The notes beneath the pieces were generated by a model. It did no database searches. It had not been told where the DNA came from and saw nothing but the letters and a program-made list of their open reading frames with translations. Below, in pieces: positions 246-33,165 of a DNA stretch of 64,000 nt. The stretch comes from Mongoliibacter ruber (lineage in GTDB: Bacteria; Bacteroidota; Bacteroidia; Cytophagales; Cyclobacteriaceae). A program made the position numbers and the translations under genes. The DNA is taken from the NCBI RefSeq assembly GCF_003003005.1, contig NZ_PVTR01000001.1, forward strand, positions 267,108-331,107. The letters run 5' to 3'. How positions within the stretch are numbered: the stretch's first letter is position 1; each line of letters opens with the position of its first letter.

Positions 246-935
246 CTAAATCAATCCTTCATCAGCGAAACTGAAGTAGGCTATGTCTGTGAATATCACA
301 TGATCCAATACAGGCACTTCCAGAAACTTGCCTACTTCCTTCAACCTGGTGGTAAGCCTTCTATCCTGTTCTGATGGCTTGAGATTGCCTGATGGATGGT
401 TATGCACAAGTATGATACTGCTGGCAAGGTGATCAAGGGCGTGTTTGAAAATCAGTTTAGGATCAGCCACCGTTCCTGATGTGCCCCCACTGCTGATCTT
501 AATATGTCTCATGATTTCATTATTCCTCTTCATTAAAAGGATGTAAAAATGCTCTACTACTTCATCTTGTAAGAAGGGTTTGAAATAGTGAAAGACGGAT
601 GCTGATGAATGTACTATTACCTTTTTTACAGGCGGTTCCATTTTCCTTCTGCGACCAAGTTCTAAGGCTGATATTATTGCAGAAGCTTTTGCTATGCCCA
701 TTCCTTCGTATTTCAGAAGATTGCTTGCGCCCATTCGTGCCAGTTCTGATATCTGGTAATTACAATCTGCAAAAATCCTTTGGGCAAGTGGTACTTCTAT
801 CTGCGCGATAATCGACAAAAGTTCAGAGTCAGACAGTGCGCTTCTTCCTTTTTCGTAAAGTGTAGCTGTCGGTTCATTCAAGGCATTCCAGTCAATCCTT
901 TTCATAATCATTTTGCAGTCTTTACCCTCCCGCAT
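246..935 (-). CDS. radC: RadC-like JAB/MPN (JAMM) domain protein
   Basis: C-terminal HNHPSG...SEQD JAMM-type motif and overall RadC/UPF0758 layout; alternative in-frame ATG at 909-911 preceded by GGGAGGG. Confidence 0.8.
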   Translation of the reverse strand: MREGKDCKMIMKRIDWNALNEPTATLYEKGRSALSDSELLSIIAQIEVPLAQRIFADCNYQISELARMGASNLLKYEGMGIAKASAIISALELGRRRKMEPPVKKVIVHSSASVFHYFKPFLQDEVVEHFYILLMKRNNEIMRHIKISSGGTSGTVADPKLIFKHALDHLASSIILVHNHPSGNLKPSEQDRRLTTRLKEVGKFLEVPVLDHVIFTDIAYFSFADEGLI

Positions 936-939
936 CGAG

Positions 940-1060
940 CTCTAATGTGAGCCGGACTGACATGGGGAGGGGCAACTGAAAGCAAGGTGGACCGGAATAA
1001 AGCCTCTCCTATTTACTTTCTATTTATGCCGGAATACCTTGGATGATCTATGGAAAAAGT
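940..1060. promoter_or_regulatory. conserved non-coding block, copy A (homologous to 16120-16290), directly 5' of radC on minus strand
   Basis: shared cores with copy B: GAAaGCAAGGTGGAcCGGAATAAAgCCTCTCC, CTATTTATGCCGgAaTACCTTG, CCTCCCGCATcGAG; no credible ORF. Confidence 0.4.
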
Positions 1061-1210
1061 TCGGACTTGTGTTGCCCTGTACCCATAACTTTGGTGCACA
1101 TTATAGGCTCGGGTCTACTCGGCTTAGGGATAGAAGCGGTAGCCCACAGGCCGTAAGCGAAGCGAGCGGACGAGGACTACAAGCGGATAGCCCGACCTTT
1201 GGGAAGCCCC

Positions 1211-1241
1211 AAATAAAAAAGCCTTCCATAATGAAAGGCTT
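1211..1241 (-). terminator. rho-independent terminator for the 1270..1617 gene
   Basis: 7-bp stem AAGCCTT/AAGGCTT (1219-1225/1235-1241) followed on minus strand by TTTTATTT. Confidence 0.6.
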
Positions 1242-1269
1242 CTTAACTTATAAGTGAAGTGTGAATCTG

Positions 1270-1617
1270 TTACAATAAGAAGACGTTGCCGCACGAACCA
1301 GGATCATAATGTTTATCTAGCCTTGCGTTGCTTTCTAAGCTTCGTCTCAGATTGTTCAGTTCATCAGCATTTGTCGCCATTCCTCTGATAAGAGTCTCAG
1401 GAAAGAGGGCCTCGCAATACTGGTGAGCTGTGGTGTTAGATAGGTAAGCGGTGGACTTGACGGTAACATCGAAGCCAGCAATTGCCAACACATTCATGTG
1501 ATGGTCATGTGATACATCGATACTGGTCGTCTGGTCATCAAAATCCGCTGCCAGTCCCGGGCTGAAATTCACGATCATCCCGATCGCAAAAATCATCAAT
1601 AGAAGTAGTTTTTTCAT
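1270..1617 (-). CDS. hypothetical secreted protein
   Basis: ATG verified at 1615-1617; N-terminal hydrophobic signal-like segment MKKLLLLMIFAIGMIVNFSPGLAA. Confidence 0.55.
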   Translation of the reverse strand: MKKLLLLMIFAIGMIVNFSPGLAADFDDQTTSIDVSHDHHMNVLAIAGFDVTVKSTAYLSNTTAHQYCEALFPETLIRGMATNADELNNLRRSLESNARLDKHYDPGSCGNVFLL

Positions 1618-6977: not shown

Positions 6978-9900
6978 ATGAGTTTGGAATTGAACGATTA
7001 CATTGGTAATCTGAATAGGCGTTACCGTTTGGGCAATGCCACAGAGCATACTTTTAGAGGAGACCTGCAAAACCTGATCGAAACCCTCGTTCCTGGTGTA
7101 GCTGCTACCAACGAACCAAAGCGGATCAAGTGCGGTGCTCCGGATTATGTCATCACCAAAAAAGATATTCCCATTGGATACATAGAAGCCAAGGATATTG
7201 GAGTCGATCTCAGGTCTAAGGTTTTGAAAGAACAGTTTGACCGGTATAGGGAATCTTTGGAGAACCTGATCATTACAGATTACCTCGATTTCCATTTCTA
7301 TATCAATGGCGAATTGGTGAAGACCATTGCCATAGCAGAAATAAAATCGAATGGGATATCCCCTCTTCCAGCCTTTTTTGAAGAATTTACAGATTTGATC
7401 AGGAGTTTCTGTTCATTCTCCGGACAGACCATCAGAAGTCCGAAGAAACTTGCCGAAATGATGGCGGGTAAAGCAAAGCTTCTTGCCAGGATAATAGAGA
7501 ACTCTCTGAATTCGGATGCATCTGAAGAAGTGGACAGTTCATTGAAAGATCAATACACTGCCTTTCAGCAGATATTGATCAATGATATCAAGACAAATGA
7601 ATTTGCCGATGTATATGCCCAGACGATTGCCTATGGAATGTTTGCTGCACGGCTGTATGATCAGACCTTGGATACCTTCTCCAGAAAAGAAGCTGCAGAA
7701 CTTATTCCAAAATCCAATCCTTTCCTACGGAGGCTCTTCCAATATATAGCTGGATATGATTTGGATGAAAGGATTGTATGGATAGTGGATGCATTAGCGG
7801 ATATTTTCCGTGCCACGGATGTTGCTTCTCTGCTCAAAAACTTTGGGAAGTCAACCAAACAGGAAGATCCTATCATACATTTTTATGAAACTTTCCTTGC
7901 CAACTATGACCCAAAGCTAAGAAAGGCCCGTGGAGTCTGGTACACACCAGAACCGGTGGTAGATTTTATCGTGCGGGCAGTAGATGATATTCTCAAGACT
8001 GAATTTGATCTTCCTGATGGACTGGCCGATACCAGTAAAACAAAAATTAAGGTAGCCATTCCTACTCATGACCACAGGTTTAAGGGCGGTATGCGTGAAA
8101 TAGAGCAGGAATTGCACAGGGTTCAGATACTGGATCCGGCCACTGGCACGGGTACTTTCCTCGCAAAGGTGATAGACCATATCCATCAGACGAAGTTTGC
8201 GAATCAAAAAGGAATATGGTCCCAGTATGTGGAAAATCACCTTATCCCAAGGCTTAACGGATTTGAGTTGCTCATGGCTTCTTATGCCATGGCCCATCTT
8301 AAGCTTGACCTTTTGCTGATGGAAAGCGGATATAAACCAAGCAAGAGTCAAAGATTCCGAGTATATCTGACCAATAGTTTGGAAGAACATCATAAAGACA
8401 CAGGAACTCTTTTTGCCAGCTGGCTTAGTGCAGAAGCCAACGAAGCCAATCAGATTAAGCGGGATACTCCTGTGATGTGTATCATTGGAAACCCTCCCTA
8501 TAGTGGTGAGAGTGCCAATAAAGGCGAATGGATAATGAAGCTTATGGAGGATTACAAAAAAGAGCCCGGAGGAAAGGAGAAGCTTAAAGAAAGAAACCCT
8601 AAATGGATCAATGATGATTATGTAAAGTTTTTACGCTATGGTCAGCATTTTATTGAAAAGAATGGAAGTGGCGTACTAGCCTTTATCAATCCTCATGGAT
8701 TTTTGGACAATCCAACATTTAGAGGAATGCGTTGGAATCTGCTAAAAACCTATGATAAGATTTATACTATTGATCTTCATGGGAATAGTAAAAAGAAAGA
8801 AACAGCACCTGATGGATCGATTGATCAAAATGTTTTTGATATTCAGCAAGGAGTCTCAATAAATCTCTTTATAAAAACAGGTAATAAAAAGTTAAATGAT
8901 TTAGGTAAACTATTTCATTTTGATCTATTTGGTAAACGAGAGATGAAATATGATTTTTTGAAGAAAAATTCCTTGAGATCTATTTCTTATAAAGAAATAC
9001 CAATAAATATTCCTTTGCATTTTTTTGTTGATAAAGATTTTGAATCGAAAAAACAATACGACAATGGATTTTCCATTTCAAAAATTTTCGAATCAAATAG
9101 TGTGGGTATTGTAACGGCAAGAGATCATTTTACCATTCATTCAACAAAAAATGAGTTGAAAAGTACAATAGAGCTATTTATGAGTTTAGAGGATGAAATA
9201 GCTCGTACAAAATTTAAATTGGGAAAAGACGTTAGGGATTGGCAAATTAATTTTGCAAAAAAAGATTTAGAAAAAAACTATCCTCATCAAGGGGTAATAA
9301 CCCAAATTAGCTATCGGCCATTTGATTTAAGATGGACTTTTTACACTGGGAAATCCAAAGGATTTCATTGCTATCCGAGAACAGAAGTAATGAAAAACTT
9401 CACAAAAGAAAATATTGGATTAGTATATAAATTAGGTAATAGCGAAGAAAAGTCCGCCTCAGTCATGGTTTCAAAAAACATGATTGATTTTAGAAGTTGG
9501 TCAAGACCTGGAATGCAAGGAGGAGATTACATTGCTCCGTTGTTTTTATATGACGAAATTGACGATCTTTTTACTAAAAGTAAGTTTTCAAGAGAACCCA
9601 ATCTTAACCCCAAAATCCTTAAAGAAATCGAAAAGGCATTAGGCTTGGGATTTATAGCAGAGCGACCTGAAGGAGATGGAGTTTGTTATGCAGATAGTGG
9701 TGAACTGCGAACTGAGTATAGACAATCATTTGCACCAATTGACCTTCTGGATTACATCTATGCAGTATTGCATAGCCCTGCATATAGGGAGAAGTACAAA
9801 GAGTTTTTAAAGATTGATTTTCCGAGAGTCCCCTACCCTACGGATCAGGAAAGTTTCTGGAAGTTGGTAGAGCTGGGAGGCCAGATCAGAAAACTCCATC

Positions 9901-10208
9901 TGATGGAATCTTCCGATCTACAAAGATTGGATACCGGATATCCGGAGGATGGAGATAATGTGGTAGAAAAACCACATTACAAGAATGGCCAGGTACATAT
10001 AAATGCTACCCAATATTTTGAGAATGTACCACAGGTGGCTTGGGAATTTTACATTGGAGGATATCAGCCAGCACAGAAGTGGCTTAAAGACCGTAAAGGT
10101 CGGCAGCTATCCTATGAGGATATCCTTCACTACCAAAAGATCATTAAAGCCCTTCAGGAAACAGATAGGTTGATGAAGGAGATTGATGAGGTTGGGTCGG
10201 TTTCTTAA
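6978..10208 (+). CDS. MmeI-like Type IIL/IIG restriction-modification enzyme (PD-ExK nuclease + gamma-class N6-adenine MTase + TRD in one chain)
   Basis: N-terminal PDYV...IEAKD (PD-ExK); DPATGTGTFL (AdoMet motif I); IIGNPPYSG (motif IV, ~8493-8504); 1076 aa. Confidence 0.85.
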   Translation: MSLELNDYIGNLNRRYRLGNATEHTFRGDLQNLIETLVPGVAATNEPKRIKCGAPDYVITKKDIPIGYIEAKDIGVDLRSKVLKEQFDRYRESLENLIITDYLDFHFYINGELVKTIAIAEIKSNGISPLPAFFEEFTDLIRSFCSFSGQTIRSPKKLAEMMAGKAKLLARIIENSLNSDASEEVDSSLKDQYTAFQQILINDIKTNEFADVYAQTIAYGMFAARLYDQTLDTFSRKEAAELIPKSNPFLRRLFQYIAGYDLDERIVWIVDALADIFRATDVASLLKNFGKSTKQEDPIIHFYETFLANYDPKLRKARGVWYTPEPVVDFIVRAVDDILKTEFDLPDGLADTSKTKIKVAIPTHDHRFKGGMREIEQELHRVQILDPATGTGTFLAKVIDHIHQTKFANQKGIWSQYVENHLIPRLNGFELLMASYAMAHLKLDLLLMESGYKPSKSQRFRVYLTNSLEEHHKDTGTLFASWLSAEANEANQIKRDTPVMCIIGNPPYSGESANKGEWIMKLMEDYKKEPGGKEKLKERNPKWINDDYVKFLRYGQHFIEKNGSGVLAFINPHGFLDNPTFRGMRWNLLKTYDKIYTIDLHGNSKKKETAPDGSIDQNVFDIQQGVSINLFIKTGNKKLNDLGKLFHFDLFGKREMKYDFLKKNSLRSISYKEIPINIPLHFFVDKDFESKKQYDNGFSISKIFESNSVGIVTARDHFTIHSTKNELKSTIELFMSLEDEIARTKFKLGKDVRDWQINFAKKDLEKNYPHQGVITQISYRPFDLRWTFYTGKSKGFHCYPRTEVMKNFTKENIGLVYKLGNSEEKSASVMVSKNMIDFRSWSRPGMQGGDYIAPLFLYDEIDDLFTKSKFSREPNLNPKILKEIEKALGLGFIAERPEGDGVCYADSGELRTEYRQSFAPIDLLDYIYAVLHSPAYREKYKEFLKIDFPRVPYPTDQESFWKLVELGGQIRKLHLMESSDLQRLDTGYPEDGDNVVEKPHYKNGQVHINATQYFENVPQVAWEFYIGGYQPAQKWLKDRKGRQLSYEDILHYQKIIKALQETDRLMKEIDEVGSVS

Positions 10209-10219
10209 AGTTAAATTTC

Positions 10220-11062
10220 ATGAATAAAGATCAATTGTTAAAAGTGATAGAATCTACAATTGTATCTATCTCTGCCTCTATCCCAATAGCAGCTACTTTT
10301 GCAACTGGATATACAGAATATAGAAACAGTTTACAAGAGCGAAATGTAAAAGAGATAATTTACACCCTCTTTAAGAGCCTTAAATCTTTAGAGGAAAGAG
10401 TTGATAAGGAATATCTAAAATCAGGAGATTTTAAGTCTTTAACAATGAAAGTATGTTTGCATGGTATGGATGAGATTCATGAAGAAAAAAGAAAGTATCT
10501 ATCTTATTTTTTAGCAAACTCTTGTGTTGTTGAAAATTCAAAAGATTTGATTAAAAATTCAGTTTTAGAAACCTTAATGAGGTTGAGCAAATTTGATTTA
10601 ATAGTTCTTAATGTATTATTTGAAGGAGTTAAAGGGGATTTTGGCGAGGTAATTAGAGGGAAAAAAAAATTCGATCTAAACTTTGCCTTTTTGATTTTTG
10701 AAGAAAGCTATGTTACTGGACTTTTACCTCAATATAATGAACTAGATATAAGAATTACCCTTCATTATTTAGAATCAATAGGTGTTATCGAAAATGCAAT
10801 TTCAAGAACATTCAACAGAAATTTTTCAATCGATATCGATGATTATCTTCGATCTAAAAGATTGGATGAAATAATGAATCGGATCCTTGAATTACAGTCA
10901 AGTTTGATGACAACTAATAAAAAAATCGAATTAAGAGAATTAGAAAAGGAACAAAAAGAACTGGTCGGTTTTAACAATCAGATTGAAAAGAATTATAATA
11001 AGCCATATATTATAACAAGTCTTGGGGTTAAAGTTCTGGATTATATTTCCATGATTGAATAA
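10220..11062 (+). CDS. hypothetical protein, RM-island partner
   Basis: ATG at 10220, 11 nt after RM stop; 280 aa, helical, no recognisable motif; very AT-rich. Confidence 0.6.
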   Translation: MNKDQLLKVIESTIVSISASIPIAATFATGYTEYRNSLQERNVKEIIYTLFKSLKSLEERVDKEYLKSGDFKSLTMKVCLHGMDEIHEEKRKYLSYFLANSCVVENSKDLIKNSVLETLMRLSKFDLIVLNVLFEGVKGDFGEVIRGKKKFDLNFAFLIFEESYVTGLLPQYNELDIRITLHYLESIGVIENAISRTFNRNFSIDIDDYLRSKRLDEIMNRILELQSSLMTTNKKIELRELEKEQKELVGFNNQIEKNYNKPYIITSLGVKVLDYISMIE

Positions 11063-11067
11063 AAAAA

Positions 11068-12552
11068 ATGAAAGAAGTCAATTTACTTTCAGTACTTAAT
11101 GCGGATAAAAGTTTGTCAGAGCCTTTACGATCTAATTTTTTTGAACATTACGGAATAAAAGAAAAATTAGGTGAATTCCAAGATTTAGATGTCTTAGTCA
11201 ATGAATTATTGGTTCATAGATTGGAAATATCCATGTTAGATTCATTTTATTTGGGATATTTAATTCCTCAAATAAGTAAAGAATTTGATTTATTAAGAAT
11301 TGGTGATTCAAATATTATTAACATCGAATTAAAGTCTGTAAATACTGGAGAAGCTATTTTAAAACAACTTCTAAGAAATAAATATTATTTGAGTTTTTTT
11401 AAAAAAGATATTAGACTTTTCAGTTTTGTTTCGAGTGAAAAAAAATTATACACACTAGAAAGAAATTCCGAATTAAAAGAATTTGATATTAAAGAATTAG
11501 CAAAATTATTGCATCGGCAAAAAATTGAAGAAGTTGAAAATATTGATAAACTTTTTAATCCCTCAAATTATTTAGTCTCTCCGTTTAATTCAACAAATAA
11601 TTTTTTAGAAAAGAAGTATTTCTTGACTGGGCAACAGGAAGAGTTCAAAAAATCAATTTTATTAGGAATAAATATGGCAGAAGCATCCTATTTCTCCATT
11701 TCTGGTGAGGCAGGAACTGGAAAAACTTTGTTGATTTATGACATAGCGAGAGAATTGAAGGAAAATAATAAAAGGGTTTTAATTGTTCATGTTGGAAATT
11801 TAAATGAAGGCCACTTTTTTTTAATCGATGCATTTCAATGGGAAATAATTTCAATTAAACAGTACAAAGAAACGGATTTTAGCACCTATGACTTAGTCAT
11901 AATTGATGAAACTCAGAGGATTTATCCTAAACAATTAAGGGATATTATTAGCAAAATCGATGCAATTGGAAATAATTGTATTTTCTCTCATGATATTAAA
12001 CAGGTATTGCAAAAAAGTGAAGAGGAAAATAATATTCCAGAACTAATAAAAAAAGAAACTAAAGCTCAGTCTTTTCGACTTTCAAAAAAAATACGAAGTA
12101 ACCTCCATATAACATCCTTCATAAGTTCACTTTTTAATAAAAGCATAAATAATAAAGCTATAGATAAAAGTTGCATTGAGATAAAGTTTTTTGATAGTTA
12201 TCAAGTAACAAAAGCTTATTTAAATTTTAAAACGGAAAAAGGATGGAAAGCTATAAATTACACACCTTCAAGTTTTAATAAATATCCATACGATTCATAT
12301 GCTATAGATTTTACAGAAAGTGTTCACGGTGTAATTGGTCAAGAATTCGACAAAGTAATAGCAGTAATTGACGATCACCTTAGTTATGAAGGGAATGAGC
12401 TGGGAACTGTAAAAAGAGGGAAAAAATTTTATTATAGTTTAGATAAAATGCTTTTTCAAACAATGACCAGAGCAAAAAATAAGTTGTGTATTGTAATAAT
12501 TAATAATCCTTCGGTTTTGGATAGGTGCTTGTCAATTTTAAATGGACAATAA
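11068..12552 (+). CDS. P-loop NTPase with SF1-helicase-like core and NERD-like N-terminal region (DUF2075/Nhi-like)
   Basis: Walker A GEAGTGKT, Walker B LVIIDETQ, helicase-motif-VI-like VHGVIGQEFDKVIAV, N-terminal D-x6-ELK; starts 5 nt after upstream gene. Confidence 0.65.
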   Translation: MKEVNLLSVLNADKSLSEPLRSNFFEHYGIKEKLGEFQDLDVLVNELLVHRLEISMLDSFYLGYLIPQISKEFDLLRIGDSNIINIELKSVNTGEAILKQLLRNKYYLSFFKKDIRLFSFVSSEKKLYTLERNSELKEFDIKELAKLLHRQKIEEVENIDKLFNPSNYLVSPFNSTNNFLEKKYFLTGQQEEFKKSILLGINMAEASYFSISGEAGTGKTLLIYDIARELKENNKRVLIVHVGNLNEGHFFLIDAFQWEIISIKQYKETDFSTYDLVIIDETQRIYPKQLRDIISKIDAIGNNCIFSHDIKQVLQKSEEENNIPELIKKETKAQSFRLSKKIRSNLHITSFISSLFNKSINNKAIDKSCIEIKFFDSYQVTKAYLNFKTEKGWKAINYTPSSFNKYPYDSYAIDFTESVHGVIGQEFDKVIAVIDDHLSYEGNELGTVKRGKKFYYSLDKMLFQTMTRAKNKLCIVIINNPSVLDRCLSILNGQ

Positions 12553-12565
12553 AATTCATGTTACT

Positions 12566-14131
12566 TCAAGATAAACTTTTAACGCACTGTCCGATTATCC
12601 ACTCCTGCACCGGTGGTGTGACGGCATTGCCACATTGCTTTACCTGGTCACGCTGATTGCCGAGTATGATGTAGTCAATATCGAAAGCCATGGAAGCCTT
12701 GACCTCAGGAGCTTTGATCATTCGGTAATAGCAATCTTCAATCAGGGGTTTTTGGTAGTTGATGAGGTAGGATCTGTCACGGGTGTTTACTGTACCGATT
12801 GGCTCAGATATCTTGGAAGCCTGATGACTGCCGTAATAGTATTGGATAAAGCTGCTCCAAGATTCATGTGTGACTATGCCATTGTTGATATTACTCGTCT
12901 GTGCCGGCATAGATTCGGTTGAAGGTTTTGACATGGATTTCCCTTTGTTCTGGACAACCAAGGGAACTCCCATCAGCGAATGGTTGATTCCTCCTGCAGT
13001 AATGGTTGACATGGGATGATTGGCGGGTTTTGCTTCACCCGTTTTGTTCATCTCAATTATCCATGGAGTCACTAGAGCTGAGGTTTGTCTGGTAGTTTGG
13101 GTAAGAAAAGGATCTGTTACCTTTTTGGCATTTTTCATTTGAGATCCATTTTCTGTTTTGATGACCATTGGAGTGGCTAAAGAATGACTTAAGTCAGTGC
13201 ATTGAGTTCCTATAGGTGATTCTATTGTGCTTTTTACCCTTCCGTTTACTCCGCTTACCTGACGTGTTTGAATTAAAAGCGGATCCACTCCGTACCTGTC
13301 CAATCCCCACTGAATCCTTTTGAGGGTATTGGGTGAAAGCGCCTTTTTCCTTTCTCCGATCTTTGTACCCAAATCGCTCCAATCAATGGCATTGAATGCC
13401 GCATAGTAGTAGGGTTCTACCACTGTGCCATCTTTCGGGCATTTATATTGATATTGGAAGCGGTATTTCCCGAATTTTTTTTGAGGGTTTTTCCAAACCT
13501 GCACGGCGTGGACATCCTTTCCGCAACATGGACAATGTGCCAATGGACGGTAATCAAGGTCAGGAGCTTTGTTTCCTTTCTTCCAGAAAACGACATACAT
13601 CCTATCCCTACTCTGGGGAGTTGGCCAGAAGTGCATGGAATTCAGGTAAAGACATTTGTGCTCATATCCAAGTCGGTGCATGGCTGCCAACCAAACATCG
13701 AATAGTACCCACTGAGTACGGGCTTCCACCACATTTTCGACAATCACAATTTCATAATCATGGTATTCTGCAAATCTGCATACGTCCCACATCGTGGCTC
13801 TGCTCCGTTCGGTGGATGGGTCAATGATTCCCTTGTCAAAAAGGTCGATTGTTGCTTTTACATTTTTGTGACGATTGCCACCTGCTGGACTGTGGGTGGT
13901 GCATTCTGGAGAAGTGATCAGAATATTGGTGCTTGGGTATCTTCTGGGATCACAGGCAGATATATCAGTGCAATCGTGAAGCGTATCGGGAAAATTGCTG
14001 TTGTGGGTATCAATGGCAAGTTTCCAGTGATTCAAAGCCATTTTGACTTCTACTCCTGCTTTTCTTGCTCCCTGCGAACTGCCACCGGCACCGCAAAACT
14101 GGTCTGTTGCTGTTATATATGAGTTCTTCAT
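12566..14131 (-). CDS. dcm: DNA (cytosine-5) methyltransferase, orphan
   Basis: FCGAGG (motif I), IVIVENV (motif VI), QCGNAVTPPV (motif X); motif IV is atypical SPEC rather than PCQ. Confidence 0.8.
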   Translation of the reverse strand: MKNSYITATDQFCGAGGSSQGARKAGVEVKMALNHWKLAIDTHNSNFPDTLHDCTDISACDPRRYPSTNILITSPECTTHSPAGGNRHKNVKATIDLFDKGIIDPSTERSRATMWDVCRFAEYHDYEIVIVENVVEARTQWVLFDVWLAAMHRLGYEHKCLYLNSMHFWPTPQSRDRMYVVFWKKGNKAPDLDYRPLAHCPCCGKDVHAVQVWKNPQKKFGKYRFQYQYKCPKDGTVVEPYYYAAFNAIDWSDLGTKIGERKKALSPNTLKRIQWGLDRYGVDPLLIQTRQVSGVNGRVKSTIESPIGTQCTDLSHSLATPMVIKTENGSQMKNAKKVTDPFLTQTTRQTSALVTPWIIEMNKTGEAKPANHPMSTITAGGINHSLMGVPLVVQNKGKSMSKPSTESMPAQTSNINNGIVTHESWSSFIQYYYGSHQASKISEPIGTVNTRDRSYLINYQKPLIEDCYYRMIKAPEVKASMAFDIDYIILGNQRDQVKQCGNAVTPPVQEWIIGQCVKSLS

Positions 14132-14184
14132 TTTGATTTTAGATTTTAGATTTAAGAATTAAGATTTAAAAAGGGATAATCTTT

Positions 14185-14595
14185 TCAGAGGTCTGCCTCC
14201 ATTACTTTAAGCTCTGCTTCGAGGCTTGCAATTTTATTGATGGTATTGATATAGCGTTGATCCTCCTCAATTGGAAAAAGGGAATCCCATTTGGTGACTA
14301 CTTTTGCCAGTTTGTTTTTGTATTCTGTGACCTTTCCTTTCTTTGCTCTGAGCTTATTAATCTTTTGCTGATCAAGCGTTTTTTGGCTGGATTCACAATG
14401 TCCCCACTTGAATTCTACATGGGCTTTGGGGTGTTGAACCTGAGCTAAAGCAGCCCGGTATTTGAAATACCAATCCCATTTATTACGGATTTCAAATCGC
14501 ATATCATCCCATCTGATGATTTGAAGGAGGTTTCCCCCCTTCTTATCAAAAACCTTGATTAGGACAAAGTGGGCATTATCATATACTGTAATCAT
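14185..14595 (-). CDS. hypothetical protein
   Basis: ATG at 14593-14595 overlapping upstream stop (ATGA). Confidence 0.5.
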   Translation of the reverse strand: MITVYDNAHFVLIKVFDKKGGNLLQIIRWDDMRFEIRNKWDWYFKYRAALAQVQHPKAHVEFKWGHCESSQKTLDQQKINKLRAKKGKVTEYKNKLAKVVTKWDSLFPIEEDQRYINTINKIASLEAELKVMEADL

Positions 14596-16100
14596 GATTG
14601 CCCTCCTTTCTTTGGCTCAAACAATGGATATCCTTTGATTCGGGATATTTCCTGATTGAATCTGGCCCATACGTTTTCGTCTTTGAACTTGAAGTGGATG
14701 GTGCCTTTTTTGTATCCTTTGATCTCGAAAAATTCCCAGTCAAACCACTGCCCAAATTCTACCTGTGGCAATCTTTTGCAGTCTGGATTTTTCTCCAAGT
14801 AGGAAAGCATATCTGATTCATTTCTGAAATAGACCGGATATGCCCTGAATTTTACGCTTTGATCCAGTAGAACTTGGCCCTCTCTTTCCACCATAAATTC
14901 ATGGTTGCACCGATCATACAGCGATATGGATTTGTTGTAATCCTTTCCTGTGATGTAGCATAGGGCTTTGAGTAGGTCCTCTATTTTTTCCAAGTTGTGT
15001 GAACCGTACCTAACAGCAAATTTTCCACTCCAGCTTATCTCGGTCAATCCGTCCAGGATGAATTTTTGATTGACCAGGTAATGGCTATTGGTTTTCCATC
15101 CTTCGACTGCATACCTGTTTTCATGGTAGTGCTTTGTGATGCGGTCAAATACATCTTCCAATGCCCGATCCATTCTTGACCTTTGTGTACCCACTATCAT
15201 TTGGATCATGGCATAGATATTCTTCATCGTGAAGGGTATCTTTTGCTGCGTCTCTACAAATTTGTTGATGTCATCCTTCACTGATTTGGTGACATACTTC
15301 CCCATGTTCATCTTATCCAGCACATAGTTCCAAGCGGATTTTTGCAGATCTTTTTTGAATTCCTCACGGGTGGTCTTGGCTTCGTCTGTGGTCAGGTTGA
15401 GACCTATTTTGGATTTGTAGAAAGTTTTGGTAAGCTCATTCATCCGGACAGCAGCATTAAGCTGTTCATCGAAGATTTTGACCGATCCGACATACCTTCC
15501 TACTATATCCCGGACAAAGTTGTAGCGCTGCAATCCTTCCACTTGCGCTTCTTCCTCCTCATCCATAAAGAATCCTTCAAACTCGCTTTCTCCGGATTTT
15601 GGTTTTCTGAGGATGATATAAGCCACTTCCACACCTGTCTTTCGTTCCGCATTGGAAAAGCAGTCACCCAGATAATCCATCTGTCCATAATCATCTATGA
15701 TCCTCTTGAGCACTTTTCTTGTTCTGTTGTAGATGTTGGCCACGGTTTCCCAATTGCAAAGTGCCCTGATCTCGCAGCCTTCGGGAGCAATTTCCCAAGC
15801 ATGAAGGATATGCCGTGCATCTTCACTAAATGGAGGATTCATTATTATGTGTGAAATATGGCTTATCTGAGCGCTTTTAACTTTGAAGAAATCATCCTCG
15901 ATTACCCTGCATTTGAGCATAGCGCGGAGTTTGGGTTCTTTTTCAGAGGCAATTACTTCTGCGCCTCGGATAAGACAATAATCCACCATATTTCCAGAAC
16001 CTGCATGAGGCTCCAGTATTTTGGATTCTGGGAAAGCAATCCCTTCGGTGATCCGCTCGATGACTGCTTCGGGTGTTGGGTAAAAGTCTGAGTTAAACAT
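14592..16100 (-). CDS. N6-adenine DNA methyltransferase with ~330-aa C-terminal domain of unknown function
   Basis: FYPTPEAV, EPHAGSGN (motif I), NPPF (motif IV) in first ~110 aa; remainder unassigned. Confidence 0.7.
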   Translation of the reverse strand: MFNSDFYPTPEAVIERITEGIAFPESKILEPHAGSGNMVDYCLIRGAEVIASEKEPKLRAMLKCRVIEDDFFKVKSAQISHISHIIMNPPFSEDARHILHAWEIAPEGCEIRALCNWETVANIYNRTRKVLKRIIDDYGQMDYLGDCFSNAERKTGVEVAYIILRKPKSGESEFEGFFMDEEEEAQVEGLQRYNFVRDIVGRYVGSVKIFDEQLNAAVRMNELTKTFYKSKIGLNLTTDEAKTTREEFKKDLQKSAWNYVLDKMNMGKYVTKSVKDDINKFVETQQKIPFTMKNIYAMIQMIVGTQRSRMDRALEDVFDRITKHYHENRYAVEGWKTNSHYLVNQKFILDGLTEISWSGKFAVRYGSHNLEKIEDLLKALCYITGKDYNKSISLYDRCNHEFMVEREGQVLLDQSVKFRAYPVYFRNESDMLSYLEKNPDCKRLPQVEFGQWFDWEFFEIKGYKKGTIHFKFKDENVWARFNQEISRIKGYPLFEPKKGGQS

Positions 16101-16119
16101 ATTTTTTGTAATGCCTGCT

Positions 16120-16290
16120 TTATCCTCCCGGCATGGAGACTAAGTGATAAAATGAAAGCACCTTATCACGAAGTCTCAAGGACTGAAGGCAAGGTGGAAC
16201 GGAATAAAACCTCTCCCCCGAGCTATCGGGGCCCTTCCTATTTATGCCGTAGTACCTTGTGTGGATTTGATGTCAGTTAGGACCTGTGTC
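16120..16290. promoter_or_regulatory. conserved non-coding block, copy B (homologous to 940-1060), directly 5' of the 502-aa MTase
   Basis: shares three conserved cores with copy A in same order and orientation. Confidence 0.4.
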
Positions 16291-16346
16291 CTTGATGCGA
16301 GTAAATTTGTGTGTTCATAGTATCACCACTTTCTTGATTTCAGATT

Positions 16347-16934
16347 TCAGATTGGGTTCAGTTCAGAAGTTTCAAATGATTCTTCATTGATAGGTTCAAT
16401 AGTTTTCAGATATTTTTTATTGAGATTTAAATTGATAATCTGACCTTTTATTCCCGATTTGATCAGAGAATTGAAATTTGATTCGTTGAAAGCAATAAGT
16501 ACTGAAGGGCCTCCAGAATTTGCCTTTGCCTTAATTCCTTCAACCGTATAAAAGCTTAGTCTACCTCTGATGAAAAGCATACCATAAGCTTTTTCCCAAG
16601 CCCAATCAAAAAAGGTAGTTGTTTCAGTTCTTGCAAAAATTAAAGCAATACCATTTTTGTGAGCTGCCAGCTTTTCTAGCCAAACTTTTGATTGGTCACC
16701 GTACGGGGGATTACACCATACTCTTCCAAACCAGTCTTTAGTAAGCCCATTTTCCACTTTGGAAAAATGGGTTGAAGCAGTATCCCATGGTCGGTTAATA
16801 GGCGAGCATGGATCAAGATCAAAAGGACCTAATGCATTAATAATTTCGGGTGGTGTTAGCCATTCATCATTCTTCATTTTGGAAGATTGATGAGACCCTA
16901 TTCCGTTTTTTTTCTTGTTTCTTGGCTCTAGCAT
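16347..16934 (-). CDS. dam: phage-type DNA N6-adenine methyltransferase (Dam, T1/pfam05869-like)
   Basis: WCNPPYGD catalytic motif and family-typical flanks. Confidence 0.85.
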   Translation of the reverse strand: MLEPRNKKKNGIGSHQSSKMKNDEWLTPPEIINALGPFDLDPCSPINRPWDTASTHFSKVENGLTKDWFGRVWCNPPYGDQSKVWLEKLAAHKNGIALIFARTETTTFFDWAWEKAYGMLFIRGRLSFYTVEGIKAKANSGGPSVLIAFNESNFNSLIKSGIKGQIINLNLNKKYLKTIEPINEESFETSELNPI

Positions 16935-16936
16935 TT

Positions 16937-17179
16937 TTAAGTTCTTTTCTTCAGAGTATCCAATTTTTCCTTTAATTCTTTGAGGGATTGTAATGCGTCA
17001 ATCACTTCGTTCATACCGTTGATGGCATCATTTAACTCACTATCTTTGGCAGCTTCGACTTTGTGAAAGTTGACTTTATCAAGGATTTGTTCTTTGGCTT
17101 GTTCGATACTATTGGCGAGTACTTTTGACTTCATTTTCTTTCCAAAAAACTCGAAGTAAACTTCATATTCCTGTAGCAT
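16937..17179 (-). CDS. hypothetical coiled-coil protein
   Basis: ATG 17177-17179; stop abuts Dam start. Confidence 0.45.
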   Translation of the reverse strand: MLQEYEVYFEFFGKKMKSKVLANSIEQAKEQILDKVNFHKVEAAKDSELNDAINGMNEVIDALQSLKELKEKLDTLKKRT

Positions 17180-17190
17180 GGTATGGGATT

Positions 17191-17487
17191 TTAGAGGGTA
17201 GACGAAAGTTTCTTTAGTCCTTCATTGAAGTCTTTCATCATTGCTTCGATGTTCTGATTTATATCAGCATCTCTCTGAACCTCCAGTTCATCTATGTACA
17301 GATCAAGGGCGCAGATATATCGGTAGAGTTCAGGGCTTTTTGTAAACATTCTGTGAATGTCTCCCAAGCCAGTTTCTCTGGGCACAAAGTCCTCAATCTT
17401 TGGTCTTGGTGGATTTGAACAGGTTGTATTGTTTTTCCTTGTGGTATCGTCCATATTTTCTATTTGTGATGTGCTGTGAGCGGTCAT
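17191..17487 (-). CDS. hypothetical protein (start uncertain; overlaps HNH gene as drawn)
   Basis: internal Met codons would shorten it to ~17454 or ~17349 and remove the overlap. Confidence 0.35.
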   Translation of the reverse strand: MTAHSTSQIENMDDTTRKNNTTCSNPPRPKIEDFVPRETGLGDIHRMFTKSPELYRYICALDLYIDELEVQRDADINQNIEAMMKDFNEGLKKLSSTL

Positions 17488-17713
17488 GGTTTAGATGGCA
17501 TCGCTGACAGAGAGCCGCCAAATTGCTGAACCGGTTGTTACTTCTGTCCCGGTCGATGTGAGCTACGGTCAGGATCACTTTGGATCCAGTGTCTGGGTGA
17601 GGCTGGTAGTTAACAGCGCCACACCATTCACAGTGATTCTTTGCGCGTTGAAACCGTATCAGTCTACTGATCAGGCTCCATTTGGGATGGTATTTGGAGT
17701 AGTCTATGGGCAT
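17393..17713 (-). CDS. HNH endonuclease
   Basis: HCEWCG...H-x3-D...N...CQRCHLNHD zinc-finger/HNH layout. Confidence 0.8.
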   Translation of the reverse strand: MPIDYSKYHPKWSLISRLIRFQRAKNHCEWCGAVNYQPHPDTGSKVILTVAHIDRDRSNNRFSNLAALCQRCHLNHDRSQHITNRKYGRYHKEKQYNLFKSTKTKD

Positions 17714-17764
17714 GTTCGATTTTAGATTGGGGTGGTTAGTGAAGACAAAACCACGGAGTTAATT

Positions 17765-18328
17765 TTAAGAATCAAACAACTGCCAGTCCTCAGCAAGCAT
17801 GTCAGTCTGGGATGCGAGCCAGCCATTGACCATGGTGCCATCGGCTGCTTTCATGCAGATGTAGGAGGTGAATTTTACTTTTGAATTTGGCAAGGCTTGG
17901 CTCTTTGATATCACGCCTGTTTCCTCATTCATCCATGGGTCTCTTTTGGCATAATAATTTTTGAGACTTTGAGGAAGAGACTTTACTTTCTCAACTATAA
18001 AATCAACATCCAATTCATCCTCCGGCCTAATGAAGAGGAACATCCCTTTGCCGTTCCATCCTTTTCGAGTGACCAGTTTTCCTGCCTTTAGTGCGCAGAT
18101 GGCCCAACCGAAGTCAAGACCTTCAGCTATTTCCCAGTCCGTCCTTTGTTGTAATGCCAGGCGATGTGCAGCAGTATGGTTTTCCGATATCCAAGGGATA
18201 ACTATGTCACCTTCCTTGGTCAGCCCCAAGACTTCGCCGTCTTCGTCCATAAACCAGTATCCTCTCCATTCTGGGAGTCTTACTTTTTTTCCATCTTCGA
18301 GGGCATTCATTATTCCTTCGTAAGTCAT
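17765..18328 (-). CDS. tandem DUF2829-like phage protein
   Basis: two repeats each with A/EdGKKVrxxxWxGxxxF (LEDGKKVRLPEWRGYWF; KAGKLVTRKGWNGKGMF). Confidence 0.65.
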   Translation of the reverse strand: MTYEGIMNALEDGKKVRLPEWRGYWFMDEDGEVLGLTKEGDIVIPWISENHTAAHRLALQQRTDWEIAEGLDFGWAICALKAGKLVTRKGWNGKGMFLFIRPEDELDVDFIVEKVKSLPQSLKNYYAKRDPWMNEETGVISKSQALPNSKVKFTSYICMKAADGTMVNGWLASQTDMLAEDWQLFDS

Positions 18329-19167: not shown

Positions 19168-21696
19168 TTAAAATGGTGCTGGTCCTTTTCTTTGATCCCA
19201 AAGCTCTTCCTGTTTGTACTGCTTATTGTCAAGGGGTTGGGCTTCGGCAAACTCCTTGGTTTTCTTTTCTTCTTTGCTGTCCTCTTCTTCATGTTTGCTG
19301 AATTCGAACGGTGCTCTGAATTCCTGGTATTCTACAGGAGTGAGCCAATCATCTGGCTTGAAGAGGTAATGCCTTTGGGTTTCCTCTATGTAGGCTATCC
19401 TAGGTTCATTGTCAGAATCGAAACCATTGATATGCGTAGGCAGCTTACACCTTCCCGGAGACAGGTACTTCATGCCTTTTTTCTCCTCCAGATAATACTT
19501 CAGTTCCTTTTCATCTATCCTGTATTTGCTCAGTGCCGGATCATTGAGGTATTTGAGCATGGTCTTTCTATTGACCCTAATGGATGGAAGCTTGTAGGTG
19601 AGGAAAAGGTCTTTGATCCAGTTTTCTACCACCACATCAAGTCTGGCCTTGGTGACTTCGATGATCTTCCGCATTTGATCGGTTTCGAAGTCTTTGGGGT
19701 CAAACCACAGCCTTGAGGTTTTCTTGTGGAAGATTTTTCGGTTTGAAAGAAAGCTGATCCAAGCGGGGATTTCTGTTTTGAGCTTATTCTCCAAGTCTGG
19801 ATCCTCTTTGTCGGTCTTTTTTACTTTGACCACAAACCAACGGGTATCTTCCTCCTCCATTTTCATCAGGTTGTCCGCGTCATTGGAACAGATAATCAGA
19901 TGCCCGAAATATGGAATAGGCTTCACGTCGATTCCTTTGAGTTCCATGAATATCTCCTTGGCGGTAACCATCTGCTTGAGCCTTTCCCGTTCCGCTTTTT
20001 TCTCGACATCCAAGAAACCTTCATCAAGGCCGATGATAAACTTGGAAGCCCAGTGGGCGTTGAAGTTTTTCTTGAACTGGTCATTGTTCAGCACGATGCC
20101 ATTGCCATTGTACACCATGCACAGCCATTCGAGAAAAGTGGACTTTCCTGTCTTTTGGTCCTTGGATACCAGGCAGGGAACAAAGGTCTTTTGGGTGGGA
20201 TGTTGATGGAGAATGGTCAGGTAGTCCAATGCTATGGTGAATTGATCGCCCTTGTAAGCCGTTTCTTTGTACACTTTTTCCTCTTCATCCCATTCCACTT
20301 TTCCTTCTCCTTGGAATAGGTGTTTGACAAAGCCAAGTGTAGTGTCAATCCTGCCCGGCTTTGGATCCCACATCAAAGGTTCCATCAGGTTGTAGCAGCC
20401 GTATATTGTCCTTCGGTATCCTTTGGGGTCCCAAGAGGGCAGCGAAAAGAATCCGTCAAAACGTGGGATATCCTTATTGATCATCTGCTCTGCCTGGTGC
20501 TTGGGATAATCCCTTTTTATTTCAGTCACAGACCATTTTTCAATCCTTTCTTCCGTGATTCCTCTGTGGTTGGGCAGGCGGACTCGCTTGATCCAGTTGA
20601 TTCCTATTCTGGCGAATCGGTCTGCTTCTTCCGACTTGACATATTTTAGCTCCTCTCCTGTCCACTCGTACTTAGTGCGGTTGAAGATGAAAGGCCTACT
20701 GCCAATATATTCCTTATAGATGGCGTAGAAATCAGACTGATTGTTAGTGCCGAAATAGCGGTATATCCCCGAAGTCTGACCGTCAGTAAGTGGCAATCCA
20801 TCAAAGTAGGTTTTCGCAAAGTGCAGCTGCGAAAGGTCATCCATGATCTGCTGCTGCTTAGCCGGCAGCGAGACCAAAAGATCATCCAAGCCCTTAGTAT
20901 GCTCATACATTTTGGTCTTGAGGTGCATAAAGTAGACATGCGTGAGGTTGACGCTTTTGTCTTCAATGAGCAGGTGAAGACTGTTGCGGAAATTTGCCAC
21001 TGCATTGGCAAAAGACATGGGGCGTGTCCTTAGGTCTTTGTTGTCTTTCCACTTGACAGTAAGGGTATCTGCGTCAAGGAGCATGACAATATTTTTGACT
21101 TCACAGTCCAGAATAATCTGCTGTATGATTTCATTGATTTCCCGACGGTGGTTGGTGTCTCCTCCATAAAAGCCGTGAATACCTGGAATGCCGACAAATT
21201 CCCAGTTTTCCATTTCCCCGATTTTGTCCTTGACCATCCAAGCTTTGAAAGCCTTGAACTCCCCTTCCACCAAGACCAGAGTTTCAATTTTCTTATCCGT
21301 ATTATATGCCTTGATCACCCCGGGGGTGAGATAAGGGACCAGCGGAGAGCCTTTTTCCTGATGGTACTTGGCAGTGTGGATATTACCGTCCTTTTCATAG
21401 GTATTTTCTTTGGTCAGACGGATTCGGGAAAAGTTCTTAGACCACTTCAGTCCATCAGGTTTCCAGTCAATCGGGTAACCGGTGGGCAGGAAGTAATTGA
21501 TCTGAATTCCTTTTTCATGGATTTCAAATGCCTTGTTTTCTTTGGTTTTGGTGGTGCGTATCCAAGCTGAATTTTCTCCATGCTCATAGTCCGGACTGGT
21601 GATCGTATTGATCTCCTCGGTAATGCCGAGGCCGCGGAGTCGCTCCTCGTAATATAATTTTGCTTCATCGGGTATGGTGGTTTTCGGATTGCTCAT
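19168..21696 (-). CDS. phage/plasmid primase-helicase (P4 Primase_C / D5-like SF3 NTPase domain)
   Basis: 842 aa; C-terminal half has KDQKTGKST Walker A and IIGLDEGF Walker B in P4-primase C-terminal context. Confidence 0.7.
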   Translation of the reverse strand: MSNPKTTIPDEAKLYYEERLRGLGITEEINTITSPDYEHGENSAWIRTTKTKENKAFEIHEKGIQINYFLPTGYPIDWKPDGLKWSKNFSRIRLTKENTYEKDGNIHTAKYHQEKGSPLVPYLTPGVIKAYNTDKKIETLVLVEGEFKAFKAWMVKDKIGEMENWEFVGIPGIHGFYGGDTNHRREINEIIQQIILDCEVKNIVMLLDADTLTVKWKDNKDLRTRPMSFANAVANFRNSLHLLIEDKSVNLTHVYFMHLKTKMYEHTKGLDDLLVSLPAKQQQIMDDLSQLHFAKTYFDGLPLTDGQTSGIYRYFGTNNQSDFYAIYKEYIGSRPFIFNRTKYEWTGEELKYVKSEEADRFARIGINWIKRVRLPNHRGITEERIEKWSVTEIKRDYPKHQAEQMINKDIPRFDGFFSLPSWDPKGYRRTIYGCYNLMEPLMWDPKPGRIDTTLGFVKHLFQGEGKVEWDEEEKVYKETAYKGDQFTIALDYLTILHQHPTQKTFVPCLVSKDQKTGKSTFLEWLCMVYNGNGIVLNNDQFKKNFNAHWASKFIIGLDEGFLDVEKKAERERLKQMVTAKEIFMELKGIDVKPIPYFGHLIICSNDADNLMKMEEEDTRWFVVKVKKTDKEDPDLENKLKTEIPAWISFLSNRKIFHKKTSRLWFDPKDFETDQMRKIIEVTKARLDVVVENWIKDLFLTYKLPSIRVNRKTMLKYLNDPALSKYRIDEKELKYYLEEKKGMKYLSPGRCKLPTHINGFDSDNEPRIAYIEETQRHYLFKPDDWLTPVEYQEFRAPFEFSKHEEEDSKEEKKTKEFAEAQPLDNKQYKQEELWDQRKGPAPF

Positions 21697-30274: not shown

Positions 30275-30341
30275 GTAAACCAAGTGTTCAAGAAATTAAA
30301 GACTGTCCAGCAAAACAAATCTTTCAAACTAACAGCGCAAC

Positions 30342-30974: not shown

Positions 30975-30988
30975 ACCAATAAAATCTT

Positions 30989-33013: not shown

Positions 33014-33165
33014 GATTCTCCTATCTTACCCATTTCCATCAAAACCATCCTGGACTTGACGACAACTATTTATTGATTTGTCAAAGTTTAGAAAATTAAG
33101 CCTTGGTTTTCATTTTAGTCTGTTAAATAACCCAACCAGTTTTATTATAACTTTTATCCATTAAT

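Follow-up and report, generated by a model that had tools for sequence, protein, structure and literature searches.

Two related blocks upstream of radC and a methyltransferase gene

The stretch of Mongoliibacter ruber DNA analysed here (the window) is 64,000 nucleotides (nt) long (NCBI RefSeq assembly GCF_003003005.1, contig NZ_PVTR01000001.1, positions 267,108 to 331,107) and, to judge from its sequence, the part from 1 to ~29 kb is a temperate-phage-like element with its genes on the minus strand. Two diverged copies of a non-coding block lie in this element: copy A, upstream of a radC gene, and copy B, upstream of a gene for a DUF4942/DNA-methyltransferase-like protein of 502 amino acids (aa). 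Here we describe the family to which these blocks belong and suggest, with moderate confidence, that its members are promoters formed by a single DNA strand that folds back on itself. The features of the two copies are as follows; model R2 is a covariance model built from other genomes only.

936-1111, plus strand (template strand of radC): whole fold-back unit of copy A, from a fold with DNA parameters and model R2
936-954/1092-1111, 962-966/1082-1086, 970-976/1071-1077 and hairpin 983-1041, plus strand: pairs of copy A in the DNA-parameter fold
983-1041, plus strand: apical hairpin of copy A, CAAGGTG/TACCTTG, CCGG/CCGG and ATAAA/TTTAT, with internal loops G-A / A-A and A / G
970-976, plus strand: 5' half of the outer stem of copy A, GGGCAAC, pairing with 1071-1077
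1071-1077, plus strand: 3' half of the outer stem of copy A, GTTGCCC, from the DNA fold
1086-1093, plus strand: -7 box of copy A, TAACTTTG, with 1087-1091 unpaired, between the outer and lower stems
1092-1111, plus strand: 3' half of the lower stem of copy A, pairing with 936-954, which would serve as the "downstream duplex" of a folded promoter
906-945, minus strand: predicted 5' untranslated region (UTR) of radC, if transcription starts opposite ~1097-1101 (template ~944-949), as the fold and the usual box-to-start distance suggest
246-905, minus strand: radC, the gene that copy A would drive (RadC-like JAB domain, Pfam PF04002, 1e-38; 219 aa)
1208-1250, minus strand: intrinsic terminator of the preceding gene (1270-1617, minus strand), AAGAAGCCTTTCATTATGGAAGGCTTTTTTATTT, read in the sequence, with terminator-like alignments in an Rfam search at E<=10
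16144-16326, plus strand: whole fold-back unit of copy B, from a constrained DNA fold (-29.7 kcal/mol) with pairs 16144-16161/16309-16326 and 16176-16183/16288-16295
16190-16259, plus strand: apical hairpin of copy B, with an extra apical stem CCCCGA/TCGGGG at 16216-16231
16302-16309, plus strand: -7 box of copy B, TAAATTTG, unpaired in the promoter-like fold
14592-16100, minus strand: DUF4942/DNA-methyltransferase-like gene (502 aa) that copy B would drive (PF13708, 6.5e-31; its N-terminus matches PHROG DNA-methyltransferase families)

The public gene call for RadC starts at the ATG at 905, and an exact-sequence look-up with starts at 935 and 911 found no match. The terminator at 1208-1250 is predicted to shield the radC cassette from upstream transcription.

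The first-pass annotation of the window had described three cores shared by two blocks in the same order and orientation, and pattern matches with a shuffle control bear this out. GCAAGGTGGAMCGGAATAAARCCTCTCC (982-1009 and 16189-16216) and CTATTTATGCCGNANTACCTTG (1020-1041 and 16238-16259) each have exactly two matches in the 64 kb, where shuffles expect none, and the third core, CCTCCCG(G)CATsGAG, lies at 926-940 and 16125-16139. The blocks do lie 5' of minus-strand genes, here identified as those for RadC and the 502-aa protein, and the idea of duplicated, non-coding, gene-associated regulatory modules of the element holds. Their extent had to be redrawn. The functional units are longer (~936-1111 for A and ~16144-16326 for B), the earlier limits of copy A (940-1060) leave out its 3' part, that is the 3' half of the outer stem, the promoter box and the lower stem, and the blocks end 20-35 nt short of the start codons rather than at them. 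The remark that such direct repeats could mediate deletion is a legitimate one, and the same argument has been published for Frpo1 and Frpo2 of the F plasmid (PMC9849209). Among the checks proposed were a test for covariation on additional genomic copies, which was strongly positive (see below), and a covariance search of both copies against Rfam, which matched no family. Rfam gave no matches at gathering thresholds over the whole window, nothing meaningful over the conserved cores at E<=10 around both copies, and no family on the motif over 19 family loci.

Model R2 recognises both copies on the plus strand, copy A at 968-1079 with 71.1 bits and copy B at 16175-16296 with 73.2 bits; on the minus strand the same copies score 16.5 and 20.4 bits, respectively. 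It finds no further copies inside the 64-kb window. The element has a third copy immediately beyond the left end of the window, on a public contig of the same element (L127, 12243-12354, minus strand; 86.5 bits), directly upstream of a DUF6943 gene.

The third core sits in the predicted 5' UTRs of phage copies only (five copies; besides the two in the window, at ~12380 of L127 and at ~16350 and ~17040 of a viral contig, L005). Its gene-sense sequence is CUC(C)-N6-7-(G)GAG, then TAAAG-N-CTGC, and it lies 15-30 nt ahead of the start codon; the reading for copy A is CUC-N-GAG/GGGAGG + TAAAG.

Beside copy A, and not on it, a Flavo-1-like sequence (RF01705; 25.5 bits vs a threshold of 42) occupies 1113-1201 on the plus strand, with the terminator on its other side. 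A Flavo-1 that passes the threshold (63.7 bits) lies on the minus strand of another family locus (L041, 5164-5233), which has two motif copies; it is on the motif strand, antisense to the flanking genes. Small secreted proteins are encoded next to both of these elements, that of the window and that of L041, but share no homology past the signal peptide. Flavo-1 may be another strand-specific element of these mobile elements rather than a small RNA. The notion that the motif is a mere promoter of a Flavo-1 small RNA was rejected: Flavo-1 was found in 1 of 19 loci, 1.1 kb away.

A family in the mobile DNA of Bacteroidota

We searched a one-genome-per-species collection with a gapped pattern that fixes only the inner hairpin, CGGAATAAA N10-40 TTTATGCCGNANT. 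It retrieved at least 120 loci in species genomes, nearly all of them in Bacteroidota; the classes among the matches listed are Flavobacteriia, Chitinophagia, Cytophagia, Sphingobacteriia and a few Bacteroidia, and a covariance model confirmed 111 of the matches listed. The family counts given below (of 136, 132, 126, 96 and 57) rest on copies gathered by pattern and model search, among the matches listed. The gapped pattern also found 14 stretches, equivalent to ~10 viral contigs, in IMG/VR, where simple exact patterns returned one relative only, so that the gapped form was needed. Among the viral contigs, L001 carries the block upstream of a C5 methyltransferase gene and L005 has two diverged copies flanking a radC gene. 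A BLAST search with copy A against phage records gave no match. Against the 72,556 plasmids of PLSDB, blastn (word size 11) gave no match for the family locus L057, and a Flavobacteriaceae-type copy had only one match in Aquimarina and a chance match in Halobacillus. Neither Rfam nor the searchable literature yielded an account of an element of this kind in Bacteroidota. The family is thus large and apparently undescribed.

Several relatives depart from the canonical form. On plasmid NZ_CP053591.1 of Aquimarina sp. TRL1 (L141, 3935-4110), the flanks, the basal stem and the box region are kept and the apex is replaced by an unrelated insert of ~85 nt; the family model finds no canonical copy on this plasmid. 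This relative lies upstream of genes for a DEAD-box helicase and RadC, on a complete conjugative plasmid with a Bacteroidota-type type IV secretion system, which PLSDB types as non-mobilizable though mobC, relaxase, TraG and TraM-recognition genes are present. Three copies on two viral contigs (L134, 3602-3665; L138, 3324-3386 and 4067-4129) have a broken basal stem (CAATTGG vs TCTCTTG) and an intact box, and would be either copies in decay or a variant that is tolerated. Three metagenome-assembled genomes of Verrucomicrobiae (L010, L055 and L075) contain, below the model threshold, sequences resembling hairpin 1 in which the apical stems are GC-rich and the TAnnTTTG box is absent; these may be relatives adapted to another promoter code. 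Finally, tRNA genes lie ~0.2-1 kb from Flavobacteriaceae two-copy loci (L022, 1881-1962; L035, 1040-1121; L062, 3407-3488; L009, 4424-4510; L087, 7224-7296), and this closeness suggests that the cassettes are near the integration end of tRNA-targeting integrative and conjugative elements (ICEs).

Covariation and strand asymmetry

On the plus strand of the window, the core of the apical hairpin reads CAAGGTG-GA-CGGAATAAA ... TTTATGCCG-A-TACCTTG, and the consensus of the hairpin is CAAGGTG-GA(M)-CGG-A-ATAAA ... loop ... TTTAT-G-CCG-(K)AR-TACCTTG, with a variable loop that holds the extra stem in copy B. The three inner basal pairs compensate across lineages (CAAGGTG/TACCTTG, CAAGGAG/TTCCTTG, CAAAAGG/TCTTTTG, CAAGAGG/TCTCTTG, AAAGAAG/TTTCTTT and AATGAAG/TTTCATT). 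The outer stems are different in each lineage and yet complementary: GGGCAAC/GTTGCCC in copy A, TCAAGGAC/GTCCTTGA (CAAGGAC/GTCCTTG) in copy B, CATCCAC/GTGGATG in the third copy and AGCAGGCCGAT/ATCGGCCTGCT in L001. In an alignment of 96 sequences that was fitted to the model, pairing in the hairpin reaches 98.9% and 7 of its pairs are altered on both sides, all 7 pairs of the outer stem covary, and four of five whole-structure measures lie above all 500 shuffles and all slid registers; for the measure of further standard pair types, 36 of the 500 shuffles reached the observed value.

The two strands are not equivalent in this structure. The basal stem closes with a G·T pair in 93 of the 96 copies, where the gene strand would have A·C, and the internal loops consist of invariant purines on the motif strand (A/A, R/R and A/G). 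The third copy of the window's element has an extra G·T pair (CGG/CTG) and a third type at a covarying pair (A-T, C-G and G-C). The excess of G·T over A·C is only modest in the outer stem (43 vs 28).

A promoter box on the template strand

TAnnTTTG is the -7 promoter box conserved in Flavobacterium and Bacteroides (PMC7641319). Such a box lies on the motif strand, directly past the 3' half of the outer stem, in copy A (TAACTTTG), copy B (TAAATTTG) and the third copy (TAAATTTG). Across the family, a perfect TAnnTTTG was found 15-45 nt 3' of the hairpin, in the right flank of the motif strand, in 59 of 136 copies. The corresponding numbers were 2/136 for the opposite strand of the right flank, 0/136 for the gene-sense strand of the interval between motif and gene, 2/136 for the left flank of the motif strand (70 nt upstream) and 9/136 for the shuffled right flank. 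When each flank cluster was reduced to one representative, 24 of 57 had the box, vs 2, 0 and 0 in the controls. No canonical box lies on the genes' own (minus) strand ahead of radC or the methyltransferase gene; minus-strand boxes in the window occur only at expected operon starts (6867/6876, 27947 and 29042/29074).

The predicted fold places this box between two paired regions. In the 59 copies with a perfect box, the mean probability of pairing with the left flank, calculated with DNA parameters, is 0.53-0.67 over the 9 nt that precede the box, falls to 0.17-0.23 within it (positions 2-6) and is again 0.5-0.6 over the 12 nt that follow. The duplex energy between the two flanks is -11.1 kcal/mol, compared with -7.6 kcal/mol for shuffled flanks (p ~1e-12). 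The full architecture is present in the minimum-energy fold of L057, and likewise in that of copy A. The 3' arm of the hairpin always ends in TTG, and the spacing from this TTG to the box is bimodal, ~15-24 nt and ~30-44 nt.

Downstream genes and their transfer context

Of 126 testable cases, 93 have an opposite-strand open reading frame (ORF) of 80 aa or more whose start is no further than 300 nt from the 5' side of the motif (median distance 54 nt), and a same-strand ORF starts on the other side in 23 of 132 only. The copies are co-oriented in all two-copy loci. We tallied 92 distinct downstream proteins by family and found RadC (21), DUF932 (14), ParB_N + HTH_ParB (11), DUF6943 (5), DUF6876 (5), ArdC (4), SSB (3), DUF4942 (1) and C5 methyltransferase (1). 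Upstream neighbours are often of the same families, which points to a tandem arrangement of cassettes. The downstream genes in viral contigs encode DUF6943 (8), RadC (5) and ArdC (1) proteins.

Terminators precede copy A and both L005 copies. A crude scan for terminator-like sites upstream of the motif on the gene strand showed no general enrichment (19 vs 17/135), and a terminator before every cassette is therefore not a generalisation that extends beyond copy A and L005.

Homologues of relaxases or coupling proteins are encoded in 12 of the 8-kb loci, co-directionally with the downstream genes of the motif in 12 of 12 and further downstream in 10 of 12; L018 and L056 both have the motif first, then RadC and, after ~1 kb, the relaxase and the coupling protein. 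The relaxase gene enters the recipient last in studied systems. If it does so here, the motif strand would be the transferred strand and RadC would be among the first genes to arrive. Genes of this kind, with the transferred strand as template and preceded by Frpo promoters, define the leading region of conjugative plasmids (PMC11541004).

A candidate single-strand fold-back promoter and its alternatives

Our combined findings suggest, though with no more than moderate confidence, that the family is a Frpo-like fold-back promoter on the transferred strand, built around a Bacteroidota sigma-factor box, and not an RNA leader. In this model, ~175 nt of the template strand (the plus strand in the window) would fold back on itself, with the two flanks pairing into a lower stem and a GC-rich outer stem. 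Between these stems a bubble of 5-7 nt would hold, on its 3' side, the Bacteroidota sigma-A "-7" box TAnnTTTG. The conserved hairpin would cap the fold, and its 3' arm ending in TTG may supply a -33 element or a site of protein recognition. The fold would imitate a duplex promoter that is already open; host RNA polymerase would bind it and transcribe the 5' flank of the same strand, giving sense mRNA of radC, the methyltransferase gene and similar genes. Once the complementary strand is made the hairpin would be gone, and expression would stop: in duplex DNA the box faces away from the gene. In conjugative elements, the incoming strand would yield anti-defence and establishment proteins in a burst, as with the Frpo/ssi elements of F and ColIb-P9. 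The analysis demonstrates the family, its covarying structure, the position and strand of the box, the associated genes and their co-orientation with relaxase genes; the formation of the structure in DNA and not in RNA, its use by RNA polymerase, the site of the transcription start and the identity of the transferred strand are what we infer.

Several points weigh against this model. Covariation fits RNA and DNA alike. The invariance of the inner hairpin is partly an effect of the collection, since the search pattern fixed its sequence, and raw counts are inflated because many copies are related. The Flavobacteriaceae subtype has a weak lower stem, in contrast to the strong flank pairing seen in copies of the Chitinophagaceae type. 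In copy B, a local hairpin at 16136-16177 (minimum free energy -34.3 kcal/mol) beats the promoter-like fold (-29.7 kcal/mol) by 4.6 kcal/mol. The role of the hairpin TTG as a -33 element is uncertain because its spacing to the box is bimodal, and the identity of the transferred strand hangs on the rule that the relaxase gene enters last. Furthermore, the window element is a tailed-phage-like prophage (with a portal-like gene, a ClpP protease and a cI-like repressor) that should enter cells as double-stranded DNA (dsDNA), yet it keeps three co-oriented copies, and its relatives retain structure-preserving variants. The prophage copies are possibly cassettes captured from ICEs and expressed by read-through, or promoters that fire on single-stranded replication intermediates or extruded cruciforms; it is also possible that the single-stranded DNA (ssDNA) model is incomplete. 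Because of this occurrence in prophages we keep our confidence at a moderate level.

Some of the evidence would also suit a single-strand initiation site or origin of the ssi or ssoA kind, at which the folded strand primes complementary-strand synthesis via primase or RNA polymerase and gene expression is not its purpose. The strongly conserved structure is specific to one strand, presumably the transferred one, the apical hairpin is conserved far beyond the needs of a promoter, and several copies per element suit discontinuous priming; the title of a paper by Masai and Arai, as cited in PMC11541004, names both transcription and primer synthesis for Frpo and counts on the same side. However, priming needs no tight placement, and the motif has a median distance of 54 nt to the start codon, a gene-driving orientation and one class of genes beside it. 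The Aquimarina plasmid, moreover, swaps the apex and retains the flanks and the box region. We consider this account unlikely in its pure form, although it is compatible with a promoter, as Frpo does both. The first-pass annotation had instead read the blocks as a "promoter-plus-leader", of which the promoter part is probably right and the part of a leader or cis-regulatory RNA probably wrong, given the G·T strand asymmetry and the restriction of the box to the plus strand. In such a leader the complement would fold in the 5' UTR and control termination, translation or stability. Watson-Crick pairs all form on the complement too, a minus-strand RNA fold gives the same hairpin, and a small hairpin containing GGAG lies near the start codons of the phage copies. 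On the gene strand, however, the invariant G·T turns into A·C (93/96) and the loop purines into pyrimidines; the leader would be without a promoter, because TAnnTTTG occurs upstream of the motif on this strand in only 2/136 copies; terminators stand ahead of copy A and both L005 copies; and a perfect -7 consensus on the other strand would be a coincidence. A gene-sense leader RNA thus seems to us quite improbable. A small or antisense RNA of the motif strand (plus), running across the block and targeting the 5' end of the adjacent mRNA, would account for the strand-specific features equally as well as ssDNA, and the Flavo-1-like element lies on this same strand, just downstream of copy A. Yet a box 5' of the structure is present in only 2/136 copies (70 nt upstream), and the hairpin would not be transcribed from the existing box, because this lies 3' of it. 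Terminator-like sites beyond the box are not enriched (17 vs 19/135 on the gene-sense strand of the same stretch), and an unpaired bubble that spells a promoter consensus is left unexplained. We give very little credence to this account. The small non-coding RNA family that had been suggested for the two blocks likewise found no support: the strand-specific features fit the plus strand, the template of radC and the methyltransferase gene, the box is 3' of the hairpin, and Rfam holds no match.

An ordinary dsDNA promoter facing away from radC, with the inverted repeat as its operator and a short rightward transcript such as the Flavo-1-like RNA at 1113-1201, would agree with a box and a TTG that are both on the plus strand, with their sigma-A-like spacing of ~20 nt in the Flavobacteriaceae subtype, and with the Flavo-1-like sequence that follows in the window and in L005. 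An operator predicts a conserved sequence, not compensatory changes or the G·T asymmetry; this account gives no reason for flanks that pair around the box, Flavo-1 is rarely adjacent to the motif (1 of 19 loci, at 1.1 kb), and in most cases (76/132) a transcript going rightwards would enter the end of the preceding gene in antisense, all of which makes it highly unlikely in our eyes. A non-regulatory mobile repeat, either a miniature inverted-repeat transposable element (MITE) or a recombination site like the attC boundary of a cassette, is scarcely credible. It would explain a multi-copy sequence of fold-back shape that lies between cassettes and is common to ICE-like regions, a plasmid relative and phages, but not its fixed orientation to the flanking genes and fixed distance to the start codon, and no integron integrase or transposase is consistently nearby. 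Both specific forms were also considered separately and rejected: the outer stems vary freely, with no R'/R'' consensus (GTTRRRY; RYYYAAC) and no integrase family among the neighbours, which dismisses an integron attC, and a MITE was set aside on the orientation to the downstream ORF (93 vs 23) and the co-oriented copies of two-copy loci, no search for target-site duplications having been made.

For the fold-back promoter we also entertain, tentatively, a broader form that goes beyond conjugation. Here, a new class of strand-specific fold-back promoters together with anti-defence cassettes would circulate among the ICEs, plasmids and tailed phages of Bacteroidota; in phages the promoter would fire from transient single-stranded or cruciform DNA (e.g., replication intermediates), and the apical hairpin would dock a dedicated protein (SSB, a primase or a sigma/anti-sigma-like factor). 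If this broader form were true, ssDNA-gated transcription would serve the mobile DNA of different phyla as a general sensor of entry and replication, with Flavo-1 as a possible second element of the sort. Experimental knowledge of single-strand promoters comes from a few enterobacterial plasmids only, and searches for them have used sigma-70 hexamers or similarity to Frpo (PMC11541004). If our reading is true, a family written in the Bacteroidota code would make the single-strand promoter strategy either ancient or convergent across phyla. The covariance model and the box would then mark leading regions and transferred strands, along with anti-defence genes that lack annotation (DUF932, DUF6943, DUF6876 and others), in Bacteroidota ICEs, including gut and marine relatives, and the element would be a compact system for studying how Bacteroidota sigma-A recognises a pre-melted -7 element. 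The prophage copies raise the question of ssDNA-gated expression outside conjugation.

Surroundings of the two copies in the window

The other genes of the prophage that frame the two copies include the following.

28368-29033, minus strand: cI-like repressor of the prophage
19168-21696, minus strand: DUF5906 primase-helicase of the prophage
17765-18328, minus strand: homologue of the anti-Thoeris protein Tad2, in the prophage early region
16347-16934, minus strand: Dam methylase, with an HNH gene also near
12566-14131, minus strand: C5 methyltransferase of the prophage

The gene order at copy B is HNH, Dam, copy B, DUF4942 methyltransferase and C5 methyltransferase; together with the Tad2 homologue, these genes form a dense anti-defence cluster on the minus strand of the early region (12566-18328). 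In the left part of the prophage, a ClpP-type protease and structural genes are followed by the terminator at 1208-1250, copy A and radC, and the L127 contig runs on leftwards with the third copy, the DUF6943 gene and then a portal-like gene. Inside this otherwise minus-strand prophage lies a Type ISP restriction island on the plus strand (6978-12552), which comprises a restriction-modification enzyme of 1076 aa, an ORF of 280 aa and an SF1-helicase-like protein. Next to the prophage end, plus-strand genes at 29552-38022 encode a PspA/IM30 protein, a 674-aa ORF without a Pfam match and a 1618-aa protein with DUF3686, DUF7902 and AAA ATPase domains; these could be a defence or stress island. 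From ~41 kb on, the window is Bacteroidota chromosome.

Comparison with known systems

The closest parallels are the Frpo/ssi elements (Frpo1/Frpo2 of F, also known as ssp1a/b and ssp2, and ssi of ColIb-P9), in which the fold-back of a single strand rebuilds a host promoter that is silent as dsDNA (PMC9849209, PMC11541004, PMC13478746). Like these, the family described here has a long fold-back on the template strand, here presumably the transferred strand, upstream of leading-region genes (ssb, anti-restriction and methyltransferase genes), and several diverged copies per element. Its stems covary, and in the predicted fold a host-type -7 box lies on the non-template arm between two stems, the -33 element being uncertain. 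It differs from Frpo/ssi in having no detectable sequence similarity to them, in that blastn against PLSDB, F-like plasmids included, gave no enterobacterial match (a Frpo reference was not aligned directly). It also differs in using the Bacteroidota -7 box TAnnTTTG instead of the -35/-10 hexamers of sigma-70, in the predicted location of this box in a bubble instead of inside a duplex, in a conserved apical hairpin without a described counterpart in Frpo, and in its presence in prophages as well.

A second group of parallels, all from Weinberg et al. 2010, is formed by the radC RNA motif (RF01754), STAXI and Pedo-repair (RF01715), which are likewise conserved and structured and, in mobile DNA, adjoin radC or ssb or genes for anti-restriction proteins, integrases or methyltransferases. 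The authors of STAXI (Weinberg et al. 2010) themselves weighed a role as single-stranded DNA (PMC2864571). These motifs have other sequences, structures and taxa than the family here, the radC RNA being found in Proteobacteria and Pedo-repair in Pedobacter only. None of the three scored at gathering thresholds on the window or on the 19 family loci, two of which are from Pedobacter, and none did so at E<=10 around the copies.

In single-strand origins (sso) of the ssoA type, from rolling-circle plasmids and ICEs, a folded ssDNA that is specific in strand and orientation is used as a promoter by host RNA polymerase. An sso makes a short primer and is not placed to express a downstream gene, unlike the family here, which lies at a fixed short distance upstream of ORFs. 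The radC gene of the window also resembles phage "morons", as it is a stand-alone unit amid phage structural genes, lying between a terminator and the next gene; the DUF6943 gene has its own copy of the motif. Morons have ordinary dsDNA promoters, whereas the sole promoter box here faces the wrong way unless the strand folds back.

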